From the IMG/VR virus record IMGVR_UViG_3300027419_000019: DNA of 38,677 nucleotides; one strand, written 5' to 3'. This document shows, piece by piece, positions 6,645-38,677 of this stretch (position 1 is its first letter; every line of letters starts with the position of its first letter). Source of the DNA: a virus. The position numbers and the translations under genes were made by a program. The notes under the pieces are model-generated. The model was not told the DNA's origin. It did no database searches and saw only the letters and a program-made list of their open reading frames with translations.

Positions 6645-7055
6645 CTAGTAAGCATAAGCAATCCTGAAGTCCCGGTGTCGCATGTAGACCTTCGCTTCAG
6701 CGTTCACATCCGGGTCTGCCCCGGCATCTTCGATACTTGTTACCCTGAGGTAGTCGGTCCCTGCCGGCAGGAGTGCGAGCCCGCAGGGGACCTTCTTCTT
6801 CAGGAGCTGGGAGAGGGCCTCGGCTGCCGGATCAGTGCTGGCAAATACCGAGACCTGCACCCGAGCGTGCCCGTTGTCGCTGGATGATGTGCAGGCATCC
6901 CCGATGTCCGAGATCGTGCCAGGAAGCATAATGTAGGGCAGCGTCGGGGAGACCGGGACATCACCGATACGATACACCCTTGTTCCGACAATGGCGGAGA
7001 TCTCCGCGATGCCCTTGATCCTGGTCTGCATGGCGATAACCGGGTCAGCCATCAT
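6645..7055 (-). CDS. Tail completion / tail terminator protein (DUF3168-like).
   Basis: MMADPVIAMQTRIKGIAEISAIVGTRVYRIGDVP…LPYIML resembles gp17/DUF3168-type proteins. The ATG at 7055 forms an ATGA overlap with the upstream stop. The track ORF extends to 7112. Confidence 0.65.
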   Translation of the reverse strand: MMADPVIAMQTRIKGIAEISAIVGTRVYRIGDVPVSPTLPYIMLPGTISDIGDACTSSSDNGHARVQVSVFASTDPAAEALSQLLKKKVPCGLALLPAGTDYLRVTSIEDAGADPDVNAEAKVYMRHRDFRIAYAY

Positions 7056-13997: not shown

Positions 13998-14840
13998 CTA
14001 CTCGTCCCCTCCCTTTGCCTGCCGGTACGACTCCCAGCACCGGCAGCCCGGGAACCGTGGGGGGTTCTGGTGTCCGCTGCTGTGCGGTTGGTCAATAGGG
14101 ATCCAGCCATCCGCGGTATTCTCCAGACAGCCGTCGCTTACTTTACCGTCCCCGCTGTTCTCCCAGCGCTTCTCCATATTGGTACCCTCATCGTTCAACG
14201 TGTCTGCAAAACCACGATTGCCCGCCTCGTAGCTCTGAGCTGCTTCGTGCGTGGCGATGAGCCGGGCGCGGTCCCGGCTGATGGGGCCGTCGAAAAGCCG
14301 CTGGATCTCCTTCGCAGTCACATCATACGACTTGCCCTCCTCCAGAGCTTTGACGATCGCGAACTGGAGCTGGTCCCTCGTCGTAATCTGGATGTCTTTG
14401 ATGTAGCCGAGGCTGCCGCCAGTCTTCCGGAAAAATTCCACAGCCCGAGGATTGGAGAGATCCCAGAACTTCCCACCCGGGTTGATAAGGTCCTGCAACA
14501 AGTCCCCGCCGGCCTGCATCCCGTCTTCCTCTATCTTGAGAATAAGATCCTGCAGGTCCGGAGTGGTGCTCTTCTCAATCGATCCCCATGCTTTCCCGAA
14601 CTGGTCGAGCGCGGCTTGCTGCACATTTGGCGCGGCCTTGTTGGTCTTCGCGATAGTTTCCCCTTCCAGGTATGGTTTCAGCCCGTCAAGGGCCTCCAGC
14701 ACCCGTTCCCTCTGCTGTTTGAAGAACTCCCGAAGTGCCGGGAGATGTTTACGGGCGATATGATTCTTCTCACGGATCTTTTGCAAGCCTATGGCTGCGA
14801 GCCGGACTCTCTTTGCAGCGGTGGGAGTTCCTGAAGGCAT
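13998..14840 (-). CDS. Head morphogenesis protein (SPP1 gp7 / Mu F-like minor head protein).
   Basis: …ISRDRARLIATHEAAQSYEAGNRGF…RWENSGDGKVSDGC…PPRFPGCRCW… matches the conserved core of the SPP1 gp7 family. It lies directly after the portal gene. Confidence 0.85.
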   Translation of the reverse strand: MPSGTPTAAKRVRLAAIGLQKIREKNHIARKHLPALREFFKQQRERVLEALDGLKPYLEGETIAKTNKAAPNVQQAALDQFGKAWGSIEKSTTPDLQDLILKIEEDGMQAGGDLLQDLINPGGKFWDLSNPRAVEFFRKTGGSLGYIKDIQITTRDQLQFAIVKALEEGKSYDVTAKEIQRLFDGPISRDRARLIATHEAAQSYEAGNRGFADTLNDEGTNMEKRWENSGDGKVSDGCLENTADGWIPIDQPHSSGHQNPPRFPGCRCWESYRQAKGGDE

Positions 14841-25096: not shown

Positions 25097-25822
25097 TCAA
25101 TCCCCCTCCAGCCTTGGCGCGAGGAAATACCCGCATTCCATCCCGTCCAGCTCGAAGTCGAACCGGATCGGGTGGTCCTGGCCGAGCAGTGCCGTGCACG
25201 TGCTCGCCCCTTTCATTGCCTTGCCGATCTCCTTCAGGTAGTCCAGCGAGAACAGCGAGCGGACTGCTGCGTCCGGCACCTGGCACTTTCCTGTCGATTC
25301 GAGGACCTTGTGCAGCTGATCAGTGTCCCCCTCCGCATCCAGGGCCAGCCCTTCCTTGCAGGTACCGAGCCGGACCTTGTCGCTGATCACGCCCATGGCC
25401 TTGATCGCTTCCTGCAGCTGGCCGGCATCGATGTCGATCGCGGCGGGGAGTGAGAGGGACGGCGGGTTCGGGCGCTTGCGGACCGTTTGGACGTCGAGCG
25501 GTGTGTGCTTGACCGTGTACCTGCCATCAGACATGATGAGCCGGCCTTCCTTCCGCTCGATCGTGATCGTGCTTTTTTCATCGTCCATGACCTTCAGGAA
25601 GTCTTTCAGCTTCATGAGGTCCAGCCCGATCTCGGCCTTCTCGGTCTCGGTGAATTCGTCGAACTGTGCTTTCGGCAGATTGGCGCTGACCATCGCGACG
25701 TTCGCGGTGTCCACGGCAAGGGTGTTCCACCCCTGATCGGTAATCATCAGCCTGCATTCCGGCACCAGGGCGCTCAGGACATTGCAGAACGCACTGAGCC
25801 GGGTCTGGGGGATCTTCATCAT
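25097..25822 (-). CDS. pcna: PCNA (archaeal/eukaryal-type DNA sliding clamp).
   Basis: 241 aa with a two-domain clamp pattern: …FCNVLSALVPECRLMITDQGWNTLAVDTANVAMVSANLPKAQFDEF…SLFSLDYLKEIGKAM…IRFDFELDGMECGYFLAPRLE. The terminal 'Y.LAPR.E' is a PCNA hallmark. Confidence 0.85.
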   Translation of the reverse strand: MMKIPQTRLSAFCNVLSALVPECRLMITDQGWNTLAVDTANVAMVSANLPKAQFDEFTETEKAEIGLDLMKLKDFLKVMDDEKSTITIERKEGRLIMSDGRYTVKHTPLDVQTVRKRPNPPSLSLPAAIDIDAGQLQEAIKAMGVISDKVRLGTCKEGLALDAEGDTDQLHKVLESTGKCQVPDAAVRSLFSLDYLKEIGKAMKGASTCTALLGQDHPIRFDFELDGMECGYFLAPRLEGD

Positions 25823-28800
25823 GGGGTTTCACACTCCTTCGGTTTCTTCGGGGATCGTTTCTTCTTCGATGGTGGTTTTTTCTCGGCGATTTTGACTCCG
25901 GGTTTCCAGCCACTACATCCGTCTTTTTTGACGGAAGAGATGAGATCTTCCGCTTTTAATTTCCCACTCACAACATCGTCGAAAGAGGGGCAATCTCTTA
26001 GGATGATCCCCCCACCGCACCCCAGACAATTATCGCAGTTTTTTTCCGCACCGTATTCTTTCGAGGGTTCCTTATGCTCTACCAACTGCTTGAGGGCGTG
26101 CATCCTCTTTCCCTGGGGGAGGTCCTGGACCGGGTTGATGATTTCAACACCATGGAAGGCCCCCTCGATAATGCGCTGGTGGATCTGTCCGCAGAGGAGA
26201 GTGATCTTTTTCACTACTGCGAGGTCCGGATCGGCCTTGGCCCGCTGCTGGACCATGTCGAAGAATTCCGGATCATTCTCGATATCCTCCGGTGAGACAT
26301 CGTAGTTCTCGATCTCGTCTCCCGGGCGAATCAGGCCGTACTTGTCGGAGAGGATGTAATACTCGTCCCCCTCAAACACGTGCTCTGCATATTTCCTTGC
26401 CAGAGTGAAGAGGGGCCCGGTATATGCTTCACGGGCGACAACGCGGGCCGGGGTCTTCTTCCTTCCCTTCGCGGGTTCATCCCAGATTTTGGCCTTTCCG
26501 CAGGAGATGATACAGATCTCGCGGTATCCCCATCGGGGCGATGCGGGTTCTCCATCCTCCTCAAGTCTCCTTACGTGTTCTTCGAATTCCCAGCAGCCGT
26601 CATTGCCATCTTCATCGATACACTCGATCTTGCAGACCTTGCACGGCCCCTCGATATCATCGGTAGGATAATCTGGCTTCGGTCTTGGCCTTAAGGAGAA
26701 GTGGACCTTTGAACCATCCGGGCGGGTCTCCTCGATTTGATTCTTGATGGAGACGGCCCCCTGGTAGGTATCCGCCCCTTCGTACAGCCATTCACCTTTT
26801 GCGGGGTCGTGCTTCCAGACCTCCCAGATCCAGCCGGGATTATTCCTGCGTTTTGCCTCGGTGAGCGCTTCGAACCACTCTGGAGTGTCCCGTTTCGGTT
26901 TTACCGGCTTGATGGGGACGCTGCAACCCACCGCCGCCCTCTCTTCGAAGGTCTTCCTATCACACCTCTCACTGATCGTGCAGTTGCCAAGATCGTTGAT
27001 CTCCTTGCATCGATCGTTCTTATCGAGCCAGTGCCCGCATCTCTCCCGCTGTGTCTCCTCCATCAGGACCTTGGCACTCTTGGTTCCTTTCATGAACAGG
27101 AGTTCTCCAAGGCGTGGACATGAGGGGTGGAATGTTTTCTTGCCCTTGTGATGGCCGCAGGTCCCGCAGGTGCCGGGAGTCGGGCCACCGGGACCGGCCG
27201 GGTGACGGCCTTGCTCTCCCTCGTCCCGCTCCTCCTGGGCTTTGATGATGGCCTTCACCGCATCCAGGCAACCGGCATAAGGATCCCTCCTCAGGCAGTC
27301 CTTGTAGACGTCACACTCGATGCAGACCTGTGAAATGGGGTTTTCAGGATCGGGGCGGGAAGGCCCCCTGGTCCTCTTTATCAGGCACTTTGGATCGTCC
27401 TGGCCCTTGCAGCCATCTTCGCACTTATCACAAACGTCGTGCCAAATTTGCTTGACGGTCTTCCCTGTAGTATCATAGATCGCGGCCTGCTTGCTGGTGT
27501 CTTTTTCCTCCTTGATTTCCCTGGGCGCCGTTTGATCCGGCTCCTCCCCTCCAAACGTGAACAGGCCGATCGGCTGCTGCTGCAGCTCGCGGACCGCGAT
27601 CGCGTGGGTCTTCGGCTCGATCTCGAACCCGATCCACTCCATACCAAGCAGGTTGGCGGCAATCAGGGACGTGCCGGTACCCGCATACGGGTCCAGCAGG
27701 ATCTCCCCGGGTGCCATGAACCGGCTGATAATGCCGAGAACATCATGCACGGACTGCTGCCATGGGTGGAATTTCTTCTGCCTGAAGCCACGGACAACAT
27801 CCGAGAAACACCTTCGGACTCCTTTGATGTCCCCTCCTTCCGGGATCTTCTGGAAGACGAGAATCGGTTTGTGCAGGCAGAGGGCGTTCCACTTGTGGGC
27901 TTTCACGGCCGGTCCTGAGTTCAAGGAGGAGATGATCCAGAAGTAGACCAGCGTGCAGCCGTCCTTGAGGTCCGGGTCATGAGAGCAATACAGCTGCTCC
28001 ATGATCTCGGCAAGGTGGGCCTGCGGGGCATACGTGAATAGGAACCCGTACGGTTTCAGGACCCGGGTTGCGAGCTCGCAGAGGTCCGCGTATGCCTGCT
28101 CCCATAGTTCCTTGATATACGGCGGATCGGTGAAAATCCCATCAACCGAGCACGACGGGACCTTTTCGCCCAGCTCCACCACGTCGCCCAGGTGCACGGT
28201 CCCGAGTTGGAGGTCCGTGATCCATGCCCGCCGGCCCTTGGTCTTCTGGTCTTCCTTGCACCCGGCACAGACGTACCCGGGGATCGGCTTGCCGTATCGT
28301 TCACGGCAGTCTTCGCAGACGTGATCGGATTTCGCCTTACGCTTGCGCTTCTCAGGGGTTGCCGTCTTTTCTGAGGACAATACCGGTTTCGAGTTGTCTC
28401 CTGAAGGGGTCTCGCGATCCGGGTGCTCCCTGAGGTACTCTTCGGCATCCTGAAGGCAACCGGCATAAGCCGGGGCGAACATGCACTTGCCGGCCCACTT
28501 GCATGATGTGGGGCAGCCGGCACGGTTCAACTCCTCAGTGTTATCAGTGTGTGGTTTTTCTACGTTTTCTGTAGGTTCCTGTACCCGAGTGGCGGCCGAG
28601 GCCTTCAACAACTTCGGGGGGATTTTCCAGAGCGGGCAGCCGCGGCCACCATAGAGGGCCGATTTCTTCATCCGAATTATCGGGCAGAGTTCGGTATTCC
28701 CGTCAATCCACTCGTCGCGATCTTTCCCGTCCGGGCATACACCCATGGCACACATTCCCATGACGGGGTTGTCATCCCTGCAATGCTCAAGGCGCATTTC

Positions 28801-29235
28801 CACCAGGGTGCGGAGCCGTTCGATCTGGTCTTCTTGCCGAGGGTTTCCGAGCACGTTGCACGGGCAGACTGCAAAGGAGCCGAGAGCCCAGCCGGTCAGC
28901 GCACAGACGCCTTTTTTGACCTTGCGGCCCTTCTCGCTCTCACCTTCCGACACCAGTTTGTACGGGCAGGCGTCCGGGCAGTTCTTCACGCCAGGGCTTG
29001 GGCTGTTGAACTCACTGGTGTTGAGCCGGGCGCTGATGCGGCGGATAAACTGCTCATCGTCCATTTCCTTGACGCACATCGGCATGGCGCCCGGCATCCC
29101 GTGAATAACGGCACATGTTTGCGGGCTGTCCGGATATTCGGGATCTCGCTGCAGGTCCGGGCACTTCCTCGCCCGGCAGTCCTTGATGCCCCACTTGCTC
29201 TCTTTCTTCTCCGGGGCTCCGCAGCAATCGCTCAT
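25819..29235 (-). CDS. Giant Cys-rich multidomain protein. It has an N-terminal Cys-rich region, a beta-class N6/N4 DNA methyltransferase (DPPY), a Cys-rich linker, a DUF6884/YaaA-like domain and a Lys-rich tail.
   Basis: Track ORF 25819..29265 (1148 aa). MSDCCG at 29235 forms an ATGA overlap with the wHTH stop. MTase motif IV is SVDGIFTDPPY (28117-28128). Motif I is ILLDPYAGTGTSLIAANLLGMEWIGFEIEP (about 27670-27693). The C-terminal ICIISCGKAK…AREAYTGPLFTLARKYAE…YYILSDKYGLIRPGDEIENYDV (26080-26523) resembles DUF6884. Confidence 0.8.
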   Translation of the reverse strand: MSDCCGAPEKKESKWGIKDCRARKCPDLQRDPEYPDSPQTCAVIHGMPGAMPMCVKEMDDEQFIRRISARLNTSEFNSPSPGVKNCPDACPYKLVSEGESEKGRKVKKGVCALTGWALGSFAVCPCNVLGNPRQEDQIERLRTLVEMRLEHCRDDNPVMGMCAMGVCPDGKDRDEWIDGNTELCPIIRMKKSALYGGRGCPLWKIPPKLLKASAATRVQEPTENVEKPHTDNTEELNRAGCPTSCKWAGKCMFAPAYAGCLQDAEEYLREHPDRETPSGDNSKPVLSSEKTATPEKRKRKAKSDHVCEDCRERYGKPIPGYVCAGCKEDQKTKGRRAWITDLQLGTVHLGDVVELGEKVPSCSVDGIFTDPPYIKELWEQAYADLCELATRVLKPYGFLFTYAPQAHLAEIMEQLYCSHDPDLKDGCTLVYFWIISSLNSGPAVKAHKWNALCLHKPILVFQKIPEGGDIKGVRRCFSDVVRGFRQKKFHPWQQSVHDVLGIISRFMAPGEILLDPYAGTGTSLIAANLLGMEWIGFEIEPKTHAIAVRELQQQPIGLFTFGGEEPDQTAPREIKEEKDTSKQAAIYDTTGKTVKQIWHDVCDKCEDGCKGQDDPKCLIKRTRGPSRPDPENPISQVCIECDVYKDCLRRDPYAGCLDAVKAIIKAQEERDEGEQGRHPAGPGGPTPGTCGTCGHHKGKKTFHPSCPRLGELLFMKGTKSAKVLMEETQRERCGHWLDKNDRCKEINDLGNCTISERCDRKTFEERAAVGCSVPIKPVKPKRDTPEWFEALTEAKRRNNPGWIWEVWKHDPAKGEWLYEGADTYQGAVSIKNQIEETRPDGSKVHFSLRPRPKPDYPTDDIEGPCKVCKIECIDEDGNDGCWEFEEHVRRLEEDGEPASPRWGYREICIISCGKAKIWDEPAKGRKKTPARVVAREAYTGPLFTLARKYAEHVFEGDEYYILSDKYGLIRPGDEIENYDVSPEDIENDPEFFDMVQQRAKADPDLAVVKKITLLCGQIHQRIIEGAFHGVEIINPVQDLPQGKRMHALKQLVEHKEPSKEYGAEKNCDNCLGCGGGIILRDCPSFDDVVSGKLKAEDLISSVKKDGCSGWKPGVKIAEKKPPSKKKRSPKKPKECETP

Positions 29236-29492
29236 CGCTGCACCCCCGGTACCGCCCGCTTCCACAGGTGCTTGTGGCCCCGTCCTCCGGCTCCCGGCAC
29301 GCCCTCCATCAGGATCCGGCCCTTCTTCTTGAGCGTGTAGAGATGGTTCACGACCGTGCTTTTGTGGTAGCCGGTGGCCCGCACTACGTCTGCGGTCGGT
29401 ATCGACTCGGCCGGGTTGGCTGGGATGGCATCGAGGATCCGCTGCGCCATGATGGGATCGCGCTGTTTGAATTCCAGTCCTTTGAGGCTCAT
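29232..29492 (-). CDS. Winged-helix DNA-binding protein.
   Basis: MSLKGLEFKQRDPIMAQRILDAIPANPAESIPTADVVRATGYHKSTVVNHLYTLKKKGRILMEG fits a MarR/ArsR-type wHTH. Both ends are in ATGA overlaps. The track ORF extends to 29723. Confidence 0.6.
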   Translation of the reverse strand: MSLKGLEFKQRDPIMAQRILDAIPANPAESIPTADVVRATGYHKSTVVNHLYTLKKKGRILMEGVPGAGGRGHKHLWKRAVPGVQR

Positions 29493-30762: not shown

Positions 30763-31902
30763 TCACTCCATCCCCTCACACGCCCGGAGGACCAGCGCCC
30801 GGTACGCTTCGTTGTGAGACTTTGCGGTGATCTCACCCTCTTCCAGGAGCCTGGCGATAACCTGATCCGCTGCCTGCTGTTCCTTGTCGGTCCAGTTCCC
30901 GCGGACCGCTGCGATCATTAGGCTCTCGGCCTCGGCATCGGTCTTTTTCACTGCCGTTATGACAAGGGGGCGGAGCTCATCGGTGATCGGGCGGGGCTGC
31001 GAGCCGGTCGTAAATGCCGATCCTCGCACTGCCTGAGCCGCCGCCCCCTTCTGCCGCTCCAGGATAGGGCACCTCTGGATCTCTGCGAGACTCTTGCCCT
31101 GCAGGTCGCACTCCATCCGCTTCCGGTCGGGATTCTCCCGGAAGTGGTGCGTGTCGCCAGGGCAGGTGTTGGACATACAGGCCGAGAGATCCCATACGGG
31201 CAGGTCCGGGGACTCTATCGGGCCGGGAGCGTCCGGCTTCAGCTGCTCTGATAGGGGGGCCCGAGGAGGCAGATCGGTTTCTTTCAGGGAGCCCGGCTGA
31301 GCGCAGCCGACACCATGATTGGGGTGATCTTTCGGTACGGTACCGAGACCGGAAACGGGTTCGCTTGATGATTTTTTCTGGTTCTTGCCGATCTTGGATG
31401 TGTCCACTGTGTAGACTTTGCCGGCCCGTTCAACCTTCTTCCGGTCAGACGTGCATCTTGCCGACATCGGCAAGATAGATTTGCGGATTTTCCCGACGAA
31501 CTCCGGCGATACGTGCGCAACTTCCGAGATCTTGGTATCGTTCCACTGTCCCCACTCCTTATCTCTCAGGAGTATCAAAACAGCCCGGCGCTTGTCCTCG
31601 TTCGTGCGCTGGATCCCGTGCTTGGAGTTGACGCCCGCAGAGTAGAGGATCGCGTCCCGCATCGTGCCGTGGATGATGTCGGCCATCACCCGCTCGATCT
31701 TCGCGCCCTGGGCAGCCATGAAGCGGTGATACCCATCGACAAGGTAGTATTCCCTCTCGACCTTGAAGACCGTCAGGGCCGGGAACGCATCACCCCGCCG
31801 CATGGCCTCAGTGTATTCGTCGATCTTGTCGGTGTGCATGCTCGCCCGCGGCTGGAGCTCGCTGCTCTGCTTGATTTGTTTTACTGGTAAAAGTTCAGTC
31901 AT
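30763..31902 (-). CDS. ParB/Sulfiredoxin-type nuclease-domain protein with a C-terminal Cys cluster.
   Basis: …LPVKQIKQSSELQPR…IDEYTEAMRRGDAFPALTVFKVEREYYLVDGYHRFMAAQGA…SAGVNSKHGIQRTNEDKRRAV… fits a ParB N-terminal domain with the DGxHR motif. Later comes …CMSNTCPGDTHH…ECDL…RCP…. Confidence 0.8.
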   Translation of the reverse strand: MTELLPVKQIKQSSELQPRASMHTDKIDEYTEAMRRGDAFPALTVFKVEREYYLVDGYHRFMAAQGAKIERVMADIIHGTMRDAILYSAGVNSKHGIQRTNEDKRRAVLILLRDKEWGQWNDTKISEVAHVSPEFVGKIRKSILPMSARCTSDRKKVERAGKVYTVDTSKIGKNQKKSSSEPVSGLGTVPKDHPNHGVGCAQPGSLKETDLPPRAPLSEQLKPDAPGPIESPDLPVWDLSACMSNTCPGDTHHFRENPDRKRMECDLQGKSLAEIQRCPILERQKGAAAQAVRGSAFTTGSQPRPITDELRPLVITAVKKTDAEAESLMIAAVRGNWTDKEQQAADQVIARLLEEGEITAKSHNEAYRALVLRACEGME

Positions 31903-35713: not shown

Positions 35714-36060
35714 GATGCCACCAGGTCCCCGGCAACCGTGCCGAATGGTGTTGGCGTGTTAGCCGCAATCCTCGCGTTCAGGATGGCCAGCGCAGTCTCC
35801 GCGTCGATCAGCGGGTGGATGCGCTTTAGGGTCCGAACCTCAATGGCGTCGATCTCGTCACCACGGACGAGCTCGTTCCTGCCCGGCTGCGAGAAGTAAA
35901 AGATGCCGTCAACTTCCCTTACGAGCTCGAAGGAAAGCATTTTCAGGTCGTGATTCGATACTTTGCTGGCAGTCGCACCCTTCTCCTCGTTTCCAGCGGC
36001 GGAGAGGCTGCTGCCATCCTCACTTTTTGCTGATTCTGTTGATTGCTGCATGCTGACCAC
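35710..36060 (-). CDS. Hypothetical protein (start uncertain).
   Basis: 116-aa track ORF. The N-terminal 40 aa are low-complexity Ser/Ala/Glu and overlap the AbrB-like gene end. MLSFELVREVDGIFYFSQPGRNELVRGDEIDAIEV… is an alternative start at 35940. Confidence 0.55.
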   Translation of the reverse strand: MVSMQQSTESAKSEDGSSLSAAGNEEKGATASKVSNHDLKMLSFELVREVDGIFYFSQPGRNELVRGDEIDAIEVRTLKRIHPLIDAETALAILNARIAANTPTPFGTVAGDLVAS

Positions 36061-36208
36061 ATTCCTTTGACACTACAAGTGTTGTTCCTACACGATCCAT
36101 CTGGAGTTTGTCCCCGAAGGTCCACCCCAGTTCTCTGATCAGGCGCGAGGGAATTGTCGCCCTATGCGCCCCGTTCCCGACTTTTGTCAGTGTTGCTGAT
36201 TCAGTCAT
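36020..36208 (-). CDS. AbrB/SpoVT/MazE-type (swapped-hairpin) transcription regulator, first gene of the long minus-strand transcription unit.
   Basis: MTESATLTKVGNGAHRATIPSRLIRELGWTFGDKLQMDRVGTTLVVSK matches the AbrB-like pattern (v.vg..g.~~tIP..ir..lg...GD.l…). GAGGTGA lies 3 nt upstream of the ATG at 36208. The track ORF extends to 36301. Confidence 0.65.
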   Translation of the reverse strand: MTESATLTKVGNGAHRATIPSRLIRELGWTFGDKLQMDRVGTTLVVSKECGQHAAINRISKK

Positions 36209-36246
36209 AGTCACCTCTTGACGACTAGGTATTACCACGATAAAGG

Positions 36247-36260
36247 TATAAACTTTTCGG
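36247..36260 (-). promoter_or_regulatory. Candidate archaeal BRE/TATA promoter for the early operon.
   Basis: The minus strand reads CGAAAAG-TTTATA-CC, about 40 nt upstream of the AbrB-like ATG. That spacing leaves a short Shine-Dalgarno-containing leader. Confidence 0.4.
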
Positions 36261-36502
36261 GACTTGCTTGAAAAAGAGAGGAGTATTATTACCGCACGCA
36301 CAGCGGAGCCCGGACCCTGCGCCGGAACCCGGGGTCGGCCTTCGGGTACTCGGGTGTGGCGAAGACGCCTTTCCTGAGCTGCCGGATCGCTGCTCGGATG
36401 CTCTTGAGCTTCAGCATATGTGAGATATTTCTAACATTTGAAGTATTTAAAGTTTTTTTGAAATGTCCGCCCATGCCAGCGAGGTGCGGTAAAATAGCAG
36501 CC

Positions 36503-36512
36503 TTTTTATTTT
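36503..36512 (+). promoter_or_regulatory. Candidate TATA box for a (near-)leaderless acyltransferase transcript.
   Basis: CTTTTTATTT is centred about 30 nt upstream of the ATG at 36537, with no obvious SD in between. The region is an AT-rich divergent intergenic stretch. Confidence 0.35.
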
Positions 36513-36536
36513 TCCGATGGAACATTTTAACCTGCA

Positions 36537-37481
36537 ATGGCCCGTAAAAAGCAGGTAGTCGCTCCAACCCCCCATAAGGATCGGTTATTGTTCTTTGACC
36601 TTCTGAAGATCCTATTTATCGCCATAATCGTTTACGACCACTCGCAGCTCTTCATCCTCAGGGATTTTAATGGCCTGCTGTTCTCCGATGGCTGGAACTT
36701 CTATAATATTTATATCAACGGACTCACGGGAATCGCAGTTTACGGCATGTTTTTTATCAGCGGGGCGGTGCTGGAATACTCATATAAGAGAGTTGGCACA
36801 TGGGAGTCGTATTATACCTTCATTAAGAACCGTGTGACACGATTATATCCCGCGTTCTGGATGAGCTTGATCCTGGGTCTGGCGCTTGTCATAATTACGA
36901 ACGCATCCATCACGGCACAAATATTCGTAAGTTCCCTGCCGGACATCCTGTTTGAGTATACGGGGTACTATGTCCTTTTGAATCAGGGGCCGGGTCTCAT
37001 CAACAATATGAGCTGGTTTATCGCTGCAATCGTATCCATTTATCTTATTTTTCCCCTTGTCTCCGACACAGTCAGGAAGTACCGGATATATGCGATCGTC
37101 GCTTTTATGATCGTAAGCTTCAGCTTGCGGGTCCTCCTGCTCACTTATGCCGGAAGTATTCCGCAAGATCTTCTGTGGAGGTGGTTCCCCCTCTGCAACC
37201 TCTTCGAGTTCGGACTCGGGATCTATATCATACAAGCCGGGATTTACCCGAAGATCCCGAACACATCTACAGTCCTGCGGGAACTTGTCGATCTTAGCTT
37301 CTACGTCTTCCTCTTCCACATGATCGTAATCTGGAGCGTAATCCCGATACTGCCAAAAACAGGGCCGGAATACATCGGGGTTATTGCTTACTTCCTGATG
37401 ATGGCGGTGATGCTTGCGGTCTGTTGGATCGTGATGACGATCGATAAAAAAATCCAGAAGGGGCTCCGTCAATCCGGTTGA
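36537..37481 (+). CDS. Acyltransferase family 3 (integral-membrane O-acyltransferase).
   Basis: 314 aa with about 10 hydrophobic helices. The N-terminal signature LLFFDLLKILFIAIIVYDHSQL corresponds to the AT3 'D.lR..a...Vv..H' motif. Local GC is visibly lower than in the rest of the genome. Confidence 0.8.
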   Translation: MARKKQVVAPTPHKDRLLFFDLLKILFIAIIVYDHSQLFILRDFNGLLFSDGWNFYNIYINGLTGIAVYGMFFISGAVLEYSYKRVGTWESYYTFIKNRVTRLYPAFWMSLILGLALVIITNASITAQIFVSSLPDILFEYTGYYVLLNQGPGLINNMSWFIAAIVSIYLIFPLVSDTVRKYRIYAIVAFMIVSFSLRVLLLTYAGSIPQDLLWRWFPLCNLFEFGLGIYIIQAGIYPKIPNTSTVLRELVDLSFYVFLFHMIVIWSVIPILPKTGPEYIGVIAYFLMMAVMLAVCWIVMTIDKKIQKGLRQSG

Positions 37482-37627
37482 GCGAGCGGCTCCAGGAGGA
37501 CGACAGCGACCTTTTTACCAACCCATGCAATAGGGACGAACACTCTTCCAGAGTCCCCGCTGTTTTTCACTTCCTTCTCTAAAAAAGCATATCCCTCTAT
37601 ATTTAATTCCTGTTTTTTCAGCATCAT
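37469..37627 (-). CDS. DUF2080/AbrB-like archaeal mini-protein.
   Basis: MMLKKQELNIEGYAFLEKEVKNSGDSGRVFVPIAWVGKKVAVVLLE matches the archaeal DUF2080 pattern as I recall it (…K.V…GnSg.V.vP..W.Gk.V.V…). The track ORF extends to 37687. Confidence 0.5.
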   Translation of the reverse strand: MMLKKQELNIEGYAFLEKEVKNSGDSGRVFVPIAWVGKKVAVVLLEPLAQPD

Positions 37628-37645
37628 CACCCTGTAATAATCTAG

Positions 37646-37712
37646 CAATAATATGGCAATAAAATATAAATACCTAACCCGTATCACAATAATATGACAA
37701 TAAAATTGTCAT
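37646..37712. promoter_or_regulatory. Operator-like repeats in a divergent promoter region.
   Basis: A 20-bp direct repeat, CAATAATATGGCAATAAAAT (37646-37665) and CAATAATATGACAATAAAAT (37687-37706), matches at 19 of 20 positions. The second copy overlaps a perfect palindrome ATGACAAT-AAA-ATTGTCAT (37694-37712). Confidence 0.6.
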
Positions 37713-37721
37713 GAGTGAGGA

Positions 37722-38144
37722 TTGATGAAAAAGACTGTTATTGCCCTCATCGCGTTCTGGTTGATCGCGGTGATCGTTGCAGCTCCCGTAACTGCGGGTG
37801 ATTGCGTCGTACCTCCCGATGAATACTTCATCACCGATGGTCCACACAACGGCCAGCCGGTGCATGGTGGCCTGCAGCTCGGCTTTGTGTTCTGGACCTT
37901 TGACAATGGCCACAACCAGTATGCCGGAAGCCACTATCTTGGAATCACCGAGTATAAGCTGAAGGAGAGCCACGCGGAGCAGGAAAAGATCGCGATGGGT
38001 AAGCTCTGGTACTGCCAGACGATTCCGGATTTTCCTTACGATCCAATGTATCCGGAGCGCTGGGGCGCCCACGTCAGCGAGGATCCGTATGATTCAGAGT
38101 ACCTGAGTACTCAGGAGATGCGGGCGCGAGATGTCCCGGTTTGA
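37722..38144 (+). CDS. Secreted or membrane-anchored accessory protein of unknown function.
   Basis: 140 aa. The N-terminus KKTVIALIAFWLIAVIVAAPVTAGDC looks like a signal peptide, possibly with a lipobox-like Cys. GTGAGG lies upstream. The likely ATG is at 37725. Confidence 0.65.
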   Translation: MMKKTVIALIAFWLIAVIVAAPVTAGDCVVPPDEYFITDGPHNGQPVHGGLQLGFVFWTFDNGHNQYAGSHYLGITEYKLKESHAEQEKIAMGKLWYCQTIPDFPYDPMYPERWGAHVSEDPYDSEYLSTQEMRARDVPV

Positions 38145-38180
38145 TCCCCCTGCACGTTCCCTTTTTTTCAGGAGAGAAAA
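38145..38180. terminator. Convergent intergenic region with an oligo-T tract (candidate archaeal terminator).
   Basis: CCCTTTTTTTC (T7 at about 38162-38168) follows the plus-strand gene. The opposite strand reads AATTTTCTCTCC just after the fibre stop. Confidence 0.35.
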
Positions 38181-38677
38181 TTAGAATGGGCCGTAACCAT
38201 CTGCATTCCTGAACTGCACGAATACCAGGTCAGTCACGGCCGGAGTAGTCTCGGTGTAGAACCAGAGTATATCATCTACAGCCACGGTGATATCTACATC
38301 AGTGCCGTAGTTTCCTGCCGTGCCCCCCCCGAGCTGCGCCCCTGTACCATTGATGTAATAGGTGATGACTTTCCCTGTCTGGTCGCCACCCGACGCCCGG
38401 TTTTTCATGCGGATGTTGTATACTCCGGCCCGTTTGATGATCCCGCCAGCCATTTTTACATCTGTAGGATGCAAGAGGAGCGTTTCGCACTGGACCGTCC
38501 CAGTGACTGAACTTGTGGCGAATGCGTCAAGGACGTATTTCATAAATGTCAACACAGTCGTGCCGAAATTTGCAATTGTGGTGTTGGTCACGCGCCACGC
38601 CGTGCCCCCATTGACCGTCCCCCCCGTTACGGCAATGCTCGCCCCGAGCGCGAGTGCTGCTGATGTGAAATCTGCCG
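38181..38677 (-). CDS. Tail fibre / receptor-binding protein, C-terminal part (same ORF as 1-977 across the circular junction).
   Basis: Track ORF 38181..38591 starts inside the terminal repeat and is in frame with the ORF leaving position 1. The beta-rich C-terminus (…VITYYINGTGAQLGGGTAGNYGTDVDITV…) fits a fibre tip. It is the last gene of the tail operon. Confidence 0.7.
   Translation of the reverse strand, partial: ADFTSAALALGASIAVTGGTVNGGTAWRVTNTTIANFGTTVLTFMKYVLDAFATSSVTGTVQCETLLLHPTDVKMAGGIIKRAGVYNIRMKNRASGGDQTGKVITYYINGTGAQLGGGTAGNYGTDVDITVAVDDILWFYTETTPAVTDLVFVQFRNADGYGPF
38551..38677. repeat. Terminal direct repeat, copy 2 (equals 1-127).
   Basis: Same 127-nt string as the window start. 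The unique genome length is therefore 38550 bp. Confidence 0.95.

Follow-up and report, generated by a model that had tools for sequence, protein, structure and literature searches.

Beta-class DNA methyltransferases of the PF01555 family, such as CcrM (6pbd), DpnA (5hfj) and TTHA0409 (2zie), have a DPPY motif placed before a DPxxGxGT motif. We analysed a gene encoding a protein with the same arrangement on the minus strand of IMG/VR virus record IMGVR_UViG_3300027419_000019 (38,677 nucleotides; this whole stretch is called the window here). In contrast to the PF01555 enzymes, the methyltransferase core represents only about 20% of this protein of 1138 residues and is set among four-cysteine modules that have not been described; moreover, the region that usually reads HPTQKP is HPWQQS. 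A second known domain, DUF6884, is found in the C-terminal part. The motifs of this family are CxxxK and LSAxxG, and the Pfam curators predict a YaaA-like DNA-binding, base-flipping domain (PMC11701544); the pull-down data on YfjM that Pfam cites (PMC10220248) also support DUF6884 as a lesion-binding or base-flipping domain. The viral copy has the same two motifs as B. subtilis YfjM, but while typical members of the family stand alone and comprise about 140 residues, it is fused behind a four-Cys module. E. coli YaaA (PF03883, PDB 5caj) is a more distant relative of this domain. An initial annotation of the gene, made from the sequence alone, had presented the protein as a Cys-rich fusion protein. 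Comparison with its relatives showed that it is not one fixed fusion enzyme but a single variant within a family of scaffolds whose parts are shuffled: the methyltransferase is missing from several relatives of full length and only a minority have DUF6884, so that, as judged from gene content, both domains are optional, while the Cys-rich frame and its pairing with the gene of a viral sliding clamp (PCNA) are constant.

Large multi-domain viral proteins are known from the polyvalent proteins of phages and conjugative elements, which include ParB-methyltransferase fusions and DarB of phage P1, and whose orthologues vary by domain duplication and rearrangement (Iyer et al. 2017, PMC5512222). The protein studied here resembles them: it combines at least two unrelated effector domains (methyltransferase and DUF6884) in one polypeptide, an N6A-type methyltransferase and ParB are recurrent partners in its family, and its orthologues form a mosaic of duplicated and rearranged parts. 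It differs in that it belongs to an archaeal virus, is coupled to PCNA, has no MuF, portal or late-gene neighbourhood and no processing peptidase, and is made up, over most of its length, of mini-domains of metal-binding type rather than of enzymes. The closest annotated relative (vir524_00004/vir524_00005 of Caudoviricetes sp. vir524, BK063669.1) shows 47% identity over residues 6-738. It shares the gene order, with a Holliday-junction resolvase gene upstream, then the scaffold/methyltransferase gene and directly after it PCNA, and it lacks DUF6884 and the modules designated below as WxW and M10, having extra copies of modules M2 and M3 instead. It had been annotated as just a 'hypothetical protein' and a 'DNA methyltransferase', owing to a TGA in place of a conserved Trp codon. 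A further comparison, by analogy only, is with eukaryotic DNMT1. This large maintenance methyltransferase has a catalytic domain and Cys-rich zinc modules in the same protein and, at the replication fork, is tethered to PCNA. DNMT1 belongs, however, to the C5-cytosine class and has no sequence or fold relationship with the viral protein, for which a contact with PCNA is putative.

The minus strand of the window contains an open frame (25819..29265) of 1148 residues counted from the first GTG, the numbering used by the initial annotation. We counted residues from the ATG at 29235, which gives a gene extending over 25819-29235 and encoding 1138 residues followed by a TGA stop. This extent is likely, because the ATG overlaps the stop of the upstream winged-helix gene (gcgATGAgc) and the TGA overlaps the next ATG. 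The probability that 1148 codons remain open by chance is about 3e-19, as calculated from the per-codon stop probability on the minus strand (0.0365). The earlier description of one uninterrupted gene taking up about 9% of the genome was confirmed, as the gene comprises 3417 nt, i.e. 8.9% of the 38,550-bp unit genome. On the basis of its gene content and ends, the window is a complete genome of an archaeal tailed virus (~38.55 kb), since it has a 127-bp terminal direct repeat and genes for the two terminase subunits (large and small), for the major capsid, tape-measure and tail proteins, and for MuF-like and Dit-like proteins. The host belongs to the Methanomicrobiales, probably to the Methanoregulaceae: the closest record, vir524, is annotated with a Methanomicrobiales host, and further relatives were found in metagenome-assembled genomes of Methanoregulaceae and Methanoregula.

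A central beta-class methyltransferase had been proposed from the order of its motifs, and profile searches bore this out. The score for Pfam N6_N4_Mtase (PF01555) was 43.3 bits, as compared to a cut-off of 26.7, and phrog_67 of PHROGs ('DNA methyltransferase') spanned residues 320-583 (6.8e-23). Motif IV (DPPY, 370-373) is N-terminal to motif I (DPYAGTGT, 515-522), which is the permuted order of the beta class, and D370, P371, Y373, D515 and P516 were invariant in an alignment of 29 homologues. The methyltransferase is probably active. Among PDB sequences, CcrM matched best (E=6e-7), followed by TTHA0409 and DpnA, with N4-cytosine enzymes ranking lower, and the NCBIfam matches concurred. As the target base, N6-adenine is more likely than N4-cytosine, the hints being indirect: the motif reads DPPY and not SPPY, and the best PDB matches are adenine enzymes. 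A short KDTSKQ motif past the methyltransferase was shared by 25 of the 29 first-search homologues. Beyond these, it was seen in one more relative with a methyltransferase, and in none of the relatives devoid of methyltransferase. Palindrome statistics were uninformative as a guide to the methylation target: GATC occurs 389 times in the window and is not avoided, while CTCGAG is depleted (2 occurrences versus 19.8 expected) and CTAG occurs 7 times for 15.6 expected. The depletion of CTCGAG in the window may indicate that the host possesses an XhoI-like restriction activity. The window genes that were scanned include no restriction-enzyme partner.

The assignment of the C-terminal part to DUF6884 was likewise upheld, the match with PF21818 (residues 925-1050) reaching 64 bits versus a cut-off of 30 (E=2e-17). 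Both family motifs are kept, CxxxK as C912-K916 and LSAxxG as LSDKYG (962-967), with D replacing A. The same part of the protein was matched by the PADLOC candidate PDC-M57A (E=4.6e-16). A member of this family would be expected to adopt a YaaA-like alpha/beta 'cantaloupe' fold with a basic cleft. The profile of YaaA/DUF328 (PF03883) stayed below its cut-off (14.1 versus 29.6 bits, E=0.035), and the tie with YaaA is a distant one, via DUF6884.

Beyond these two domains, the remaining ~760 residues are composed of eleven four-Cys groups (M1 to M11) and one Cys-free alpha/beta module (WxW). Cysteine represents 59 of the 1138 residues (5.2%), and 6.6% of those outside the two recognised domains, compared to 1.19% in 26 other genes of the window. 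The Cys motifs quoted in the initial annotation (CDKCEDGC, CGTCGHH, CKVCKIEC and CDNCLGCGGG) were all present in the translation, as were the C-terminal motifs ISCGKAK, YTGPLF and ILSDKYGLIRPGDEIENYD and the Lys-rich tail. Exactly twelve Cys were invariant in M1-M3 when 24 N-termini were aligned, while adjacent Cys varied. In M5, M7, M8 and M10, the Cys were conserved to 97-100% over 10-37 instances, and M8 has two additional conserved His. M8 is the most widespread of the accessory modules, its C, C, H, H, C and C being invariant in 17 sequences. The spacing CxxC-x3-5-C-x7-8-C, with a helix after it, is common to M4, M6, M7 and M10, and MAFFT aligned stand-alone M10 fragments onto M7, the latter being weak evidence of kinship. 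A CPLW(R/K/S)IP motif was nearly invariant wherever M1-M3 were present, including in fusions with ParB and Dam, and M10 preceded DUF6884 in every relative that has the latter. Similar Lys-rich tails end most relatives, irrespective of the preceding module. The description 'metal-cluster-rich', used earlier, is consistent with these eleven four-Cys groups, which are invariant or nearly so in the recurring modules.

The statement that the Cys-rich parts belong to no described domain held throughout our searches. Scans of the whole protein, of the isolated modules and of 29 homologues with Pfam, PHROGs, NCBIfam and PADLOC identified nothing other than the methyltransferase and DUF6884 (plus PDC-M57A). 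None of the isolated modules had a significant match in Pfam, WhiB being at the top with E=0.89, and when PDB sequences were searched, neither the protein itself nor the profiles built from M1-M3 and M8 matched anything other than the methyltransferase (best profile E=0.17). AlphaFold2 (AF2) modelled residues 1-280 poorly, with a mean predicted local distance difference test score (pLDDT) of 57.6 and M1 alone at 75-90. In residues 585-900, WxW was well modelled, M7 and M8 moderately, and M6, M9 and M10 poorly. Foldseek comparison of the two AF2 models with the PDB yielded no significant match (best E=0.05 and E=6), and no match at E<=0.001 for the model of residues 585-900. For these two segments, the combination of Pfam, AF2 and Foldseek pointed to no characterised family, and nowhere did the profile and fold searches place a Cys module in the established zinc-ribbon, Fe-S or WhiB-type families. 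The resemblance of the WxW fold to uncharacterised phage proteins of 50-76 residues in BFVD was weak (E 0.007-0.1). The ~340 N-terminal residues and the linker, which had been designated as unknown, resolve into recurring modules.

The recurrence of the modules became apparent on comparison of the homologues. A first search provided 28 homologues of 626-1284 residues from independent assemblies, with DUF6884 in only five of them. The family is small: it amounts to about 60 protein clusters, each of which comes from a virus or a contig with a link to Methanomicrobiales/Methanoregulaceae; the relatives in metagenome-assembled genomes were found by a genome scan using an alignment of M8. When a profile of M1-M3 was run against 1.84 billion representative proteins, 40 matches were obtained, of which one (the repeat protein P0062) was spurious and the rest belonged to the same family. 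M2, M3, M7 and M8 occur in one to four copies and in varying order. All 29 first-search homologues had an intact methyltransferase, as did about 60% of the loci examined. It was lacking, for example, in P0031, P0032, P0033, P0035, P0036, P0042, P0052 and the scaffolds of contigs L016 and L019, all of which have a Met start, M1-M3 and M8, and the relatives without methyltransferase mostly also end in the same kind of Lys-rich tail. DUF6884 without methyltransferase was found in P0033, P0040 and P0050. M1-M3 were also found fused to ParB_N (P0051), to a Dam-type methyltransferase (P0048) and to DUF6884. An observation of a similar kind concerns the ParB_N protein encoded by the window itself (30763-31902, minus strand, 379 residues), which contains a four-Cys stretch at residues 251-283 with the M2 pattern (C-x4-CP...C-x2-QG...CP). 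The kinship of this stretch with M2 was not retained, as the match with the hidden Markov model (HMM) was not significant (independent E-value of 0.12 in a small database).

A recent exchange of modules could be located by comparing the window with contig L025, obtained from another sample. The two DNAs are ~100% identical from 27721 down to at least 20819, show ~70% identity over 28317-27722 (L025 2584-3180), and are unalignable upstream of 28317. Because near-complete identity on one side is followed by unalignable DNA on the other, the DNA alignment indicates that this is a recent recombination junction inside the methyltransferase, between the half with motif IV and the half with motif I. 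The L025 protein (P0002) differs from that of the window only upstream of residue ~492. In the usual beta-class layout, the target-recognition region lies in the motif IV half.

Among 17 distinct loci, 15 have a PCNA gene directly behind the scaffold gene, mostly with overlapping stop and start, and at least 6 of these 15 loci carry a scaffold without methyltransferase. In the window, the ATG of PCNA overlaps the TGA of the scaffold gene (ccATGAtg) and is preceded, at a distance of ten bases, by an AAGGAG site. Judging from this layout, the scaffold gene is co-transcribed and translationally coupled with the upstream winged-helix gene and with PCNA, because there are ATGA overlaps at both gene ends and the AAGGAG is inside the tail. 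The conserved, translationally coupled PCNA gene gives support to the idea of a 'replication-associated' protein put forward in the initial annotation. The scan of the window genes, which skipped some small open reading frames (ORFs), revealed no polymerase, primase or helicase, so that the virus probably depends on host replication enzymes.

The reading that we tentatively favour, to which we would give somewhat less than an even chance, is that the gene encodes a modular scaffold which binds metals and is produced along with the viral clamp, and whose interchangeable DNA-modifying domains act on replicating viral DNA. Each four-Cys group would bind one metal centre. Structural Zn would be the default metal; Fe-S is possible given the single-knuckle spacing and the many Cys-Pro pairs, and [4Fe-4S] centres could be accommodated by the CxxC-x3-5-C-x7-8-C and Cys-Pro-rich modules in a strictly anaerobic host. 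The metal centres would fold small modules that contact DNA and/or protein, M1-M3 with CPLWRIP serving as a unit for anchoring to DNA or to a partner protein. Made in step with the clamp, the protein would act on viral DNA during replication; its methyltransferase would mark new viral DNA and so protect it from host restriction, and DUF6884 would, according to the family prediction, add base-flipping or lesion-binding. The enzymatic domains would be exchangeable cargo, with recombination swapping modules between co-circulating viruses, including the methyltransferase half that contains motif IV and, if the usual beta-class layout applies, the target-recognition region. Frequent swapping of modules would fit an arms race with host defences.

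Several points weigh against this reading. The domain calls are borne out by profile matches, whereas metal binding, contact with PCNA and the methylation target are features that we infer from sequence. A motif scan for the canonical PCNA-interacting protein (PIP) box (Qxx[LIVM]xx[FWY][FWYL]) found none in the protein, and the pattern was present in only two homologues, inside the methyltransferase domain and thus probably by chance. Two scaffold loci (L010 and L020) have no PCNA gene within the available contig sequence and, in a small clade of closely related viruses, adjacency to PCNA could be inherited gene order. The low AF2 confidence for most Cys modules means that the models do not establish their folds. 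On the methylation target, the window reveals little, as GATC is common in it and shows no avoidance. As to DUF6884, its tie to DNA repair or modification is a predicted one, drawn from family predictions and a few gene neighbourhoods.

The alternative that best withstands the data, although we find it rather unlikely, is that the protein is a replisome or clamp adaptor, an origin factor or a host-takeover factor that, with the help of viral PCNA, would divert host polymerases to the virus; the methyltransferase and DUF6884 would be passengers inserted in some lineages. It would account for the scaffolds without methyltransferase that lie directly upstream of PCNA in at least six cases, and for the fact that M1-M3, M8 and the tail are the common parts. 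The lack of polymerase, primase and helicase genes, which makes a requirement for host enzymes probable, goes in the same direction, with the limit that the scan of the window skipped some small ORFs. On the other hand, the protein is devoid of a PIP box, the PDB sequence-profile and Foldseek searches revealed no similarity to any replication protein, and the intact methyltransferase, with invariant catalytic residues, in all first-search homologues and in about 60% of loci indicates that this domain is selected where present.

Its conventional catalytic core could also make the protein an ordinary orphan viral methyltransferase, in which zinc-ribbon-like modules stabilise the protein or bind DNA non-specifically and the adjacency to PCNA is an inherited order devoid of functional meaning. 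Phage methyltransferases are often fused to extra domains (phrog_67; PMC5512222), and the family is small and formed of closely related members. We consider this explanation unlikely: accessory parts account for two thirds of its length, the modules show strong conservation and are also present without the methyltransferase, M1-M3 are common to ParB, Dam and DUF6884 proteins, and the overlap with PCNA survives extensive rearrangement upstream.

A role as a virion-packaged 'polyvalent' anti-restriction effector which, like DarB of phage P1, would be injected with the DNA and protect it before restriction appears improbable. Such a role would agree with the presence of several effector-type domains in one polypeptide, including an N6A-type methyltransferase (a polyvalent hub domain), with the relatives fused to ParB, and with an extreme mosaicism of orthologues that matches the published pattern (PMC5512222). 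The gene is located, however, in the replication module, between the winged-helix gene and PCNA and away from the head genes; the MuF-like head protein is encoded by a separate gene (13998-14840), about 11 kb off, and Pfam found no protease, MuF, ART or SNF2 domain in the protein or its homologues.

According to the last alternative, the long ORF would have arisen by chimeric assembly or by reading through a series of small genes. The annotation of two genes in vir524 and a frameshift inside DUF6884 in one IMG/VR relative could be invoked for it, but it is effectively refuted by the identical protein found in two sources (JGI, Logan), by the independent assemblies of the homologues and by the conservation of all modules at the protein level. 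A check of independent assemblies for a split ORF revealed only the copy of vir524, where a single TGG-to-TGA change at the invariant Trp of CPLWRIP results in two annotated coding sequences; a contig from another metagenome that is 99.92% identical to vir524 has TGG (L017 4823-4825 versus L001 1695-1697 = L018 4823-4825). The TGA of vir524 is either a sequencing error or a recent nonsense mutation. In the IMG/VR relative (P0040; L024 about 6900-7000), the frameshift lies just past ILSDKYG and the domain continues in the other frame, which represents either an assembly error or a decaying copy.

The fusion of DUF6884 is unusual, because the canonical phage DUF6884 relatives all stand alone and comprise ~140 residues: among 120 listed relatives of a phage DUF6884, all had 123-183 residues and no other Pfam domain family. 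In two distinct loci (three contigs), a stand-alone DUF6884 gene is followed by an overlapping gene for a GIY-YIG_3 nuclease (L026/L027 4001-5075; L028 4001-5048), and L028 also carries archaeal-type translation genes and FtsZ. This DUF6884 and GIY_YIG_3 pair may be a conserved two-gene unit for DNA repair or defence. In a third neighbourhood of DUF6884, there are a radical SAM gene and a SNF2-type helicase gene. Together with the YfjM data, these neighbourhoods suggest, without being proof, a role of DUF6884 in DNA lesions or DNA modification. In Fusobacterium phage phiFN37 (L011 3194-5021), the genes on either side of DUF6884 are annotated as queuine tRNA-ribosyltransferase and queuosine-precursor transporter, and a ParB-like gene is located upstream; a paper on haloarchaeal viruses lists YaaA and DpdA in one virus, HRTV-29. 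A link of DUF6884 with 7-deazaguanine (DpdA) clusters was kept as a lead only, the 'queuine tRNA-ribosyltransferase' of phiFN37 being without Pfam support.

The positions of the scaffold gene, of its modules and of the neighbouring genes are given in Table 1.

Table 1. Features of the scaffold gene and of its surroundings (positions in the window; residues counted from the ATG)
Feature	Position	Strand	Description
Whole gene	25819..29235	-	1138 residues + TGA; ORF, ATGA overlaps at both ends, homologues
M1, residues 12-78 (C20, C25, C41, C54)	29002..29202	-	Four Cys invariant in 24 sequences; AF2 pLDDT 75-90
M2, residues 79-140 (C86, C90, C111, C124)	28816..29001	-	C-x3-CP...C-x2-TG...CP; Cys invariant; 62 family instances, up to 4 per protein
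M3, residues 148-215 (C162, C167, C184, C200)	28591..28794	-	Ends in near-invariant CPLW(R/K)IP motif
M4, residues 236-275 (C241, C245, C251, C260)	28411..28530	-	In this protein only; Cys spacing like that of M7, HMM match not significant
M5, residues 300-340	28216..28338	-	CxxC...CxxC, zinc-ribbon-like, directly before methyltransferase; 23 instances, four Cys 100%
Methyltransferase, beta-class, N6A/N4C, residues ~340-566	27538..28218	-	PF01555, phrog_67, PDB sequence matches, motifs
Recombination zone relative to L025	27722..28317	-	DNA alignment: ~100% below, ~70% within, none above
KDTSKQ motif, residues 578-583	27487..27504	-	Short conserved stretch past methyltransferase
M6, residues 596-625 (C602, C605, C609, C617)	27361..27450	-	Otherwise only in P0002 and P0007
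M7, residues 632-668	27232..27342	-	CxxC-x5-C-x8-C, D-P-x-A-G-C signature, then helix; 31 instances, Cys 97-100%; AF2 pLDDT ~80-87
M8, residues 684-740	27016..27186	-	CGTCGHH...CP...CxHW; 37 instances, 28/29 homologues
M9, residues 738-776 (C743, C752, C758, C771)	26908..27024	-	Related stretch in P0057
WxW module, residues 780-852	26680..26898	-	Cys-free alpha-beta-beta-alpha-beta, rich in conserved Trp; 15 instances; AF2 pLDDT 93-98
M10, residues 858-892 (C865, C868, C872, C881)	26560..26664	-	10 instances, Cys 100%
DUF6884 (YaaA-like), residues 900-1052 (CGKAK 912-916, LSDKYG 962-967)	26080..26538	-	PF21818, PDC-M57A, family motifs
M11, residues 1060-1115 (C1067, C1070, C1082, C1107)	25891..26058	-	Second M8-type copy; M8 HMM at residues 1067-1110, 9e-14
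Lys-rich tail, residues 1116-1138	25822..25890	-	Ends KPKECETP; last codons contain AAGGAG ribosome-binding site of PCNA
Winged-helix protein, 163 residues	29232..29723	-	Weak HTH_IclR match; stop overlaps scaffold-gene ATG (ATGA)
Viral PCNA, 241 residues	25097..25822	-	Pfam PCNA_N + PCNA_C; NCBIfam sliding clamp 200.6 bits
Radical SAM protein, 267 residues	23884..24687	-	Pfam Radical_SAM; two genes downstream; part of conserved module

The best NCBIfam matches of the radical SAM protein (PA0069, Rv2578c and 'mobile pair B') were all far below their cut-offs. The slot past PCNA is taken by a radical SAM gene in L003, L025 and the contig of P0032, and by DUF5131 in L002 and L005; these two proteins may replace each other as partners in the module. 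Shortly upstream of the scaffold gene, L002, L003, L005, L006 and the contig of P0032 encode a conserved protein of ~511-527 residues. Its N-terminus reads helix-turn-helix-like in L005 and a faint match with HTH_11 was seen in L006. The protein is a candidate replication initiator; the window has the winged-helix gene at this position. Finally, the stretch 36000-38200 of the window has a GC content of 48%, as compared to about 58% elsewhere, and contains plus-strand genes (36537-37481 and 37722-38144) in a genome that is otherwise almost all minus. One of these genes encodes a membrane acyltransferase (Acyl_transf_3, Pfam 2.6e-19), and the stretch looks like an acquired moron, possibly involved in host-surface modification.

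The methyltransferase, DUF6884 and the large mosaic methyltransferase fusions of phages (PMC5512222) are already known kinds. In contrast, the module families, their arrangement in a scaffold that shuffles, the optional character of the enzymes and the conserved association with viral PCNA appear undescribed, and we found no description of this architecture in the literature searched, which excluded the main compendium of methanogen viruses. It is possible, although doubtful, that they constitute an unrecognised class of viral clamp-associated scaffolds, in which novel metal-binding mini-domains (perhaps Fe-S) would sit on viral PCNA and carry swappable DNA-acting cargo. If this were true, the scaffold docked on viral PCNA would be an archaeal-virus counterpart of the coupling between DNMT1 and PCNA, with modules and half a methyltransferase being swapped in an arms race, and DUF6884, a beta-class methyltransferase or nothing recognisable as an enzyme would be the cargo brought to the replication fork.

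At least six recurring module types (M1, M2, M3, M7, M8 and WxW), defined by invariant Cys, His and Trp, are absent from Pfam and the PDB. The fusion of DUF6884 with a methyltransferase and the pairing of stand-alone copies with GIY-YIG would provide a context of DNA modification or repair for an uncharacterised family. The window and L025 represent near-identical viruses that diverge in their N-terminal modules, in the DNA adjacent to these on the upstream side and in the methyltransferase half with motif IV, and are therefore a natural pair for the study of a change in specificity. Viruses of methanogens, which matter for methane-producing communities, are poorly known. Were the scaffold to ride on viral PCNA, a virus without polymerase of its own would couple the modification of its DNA to host-driven replication, with enzymes as plug-ins.

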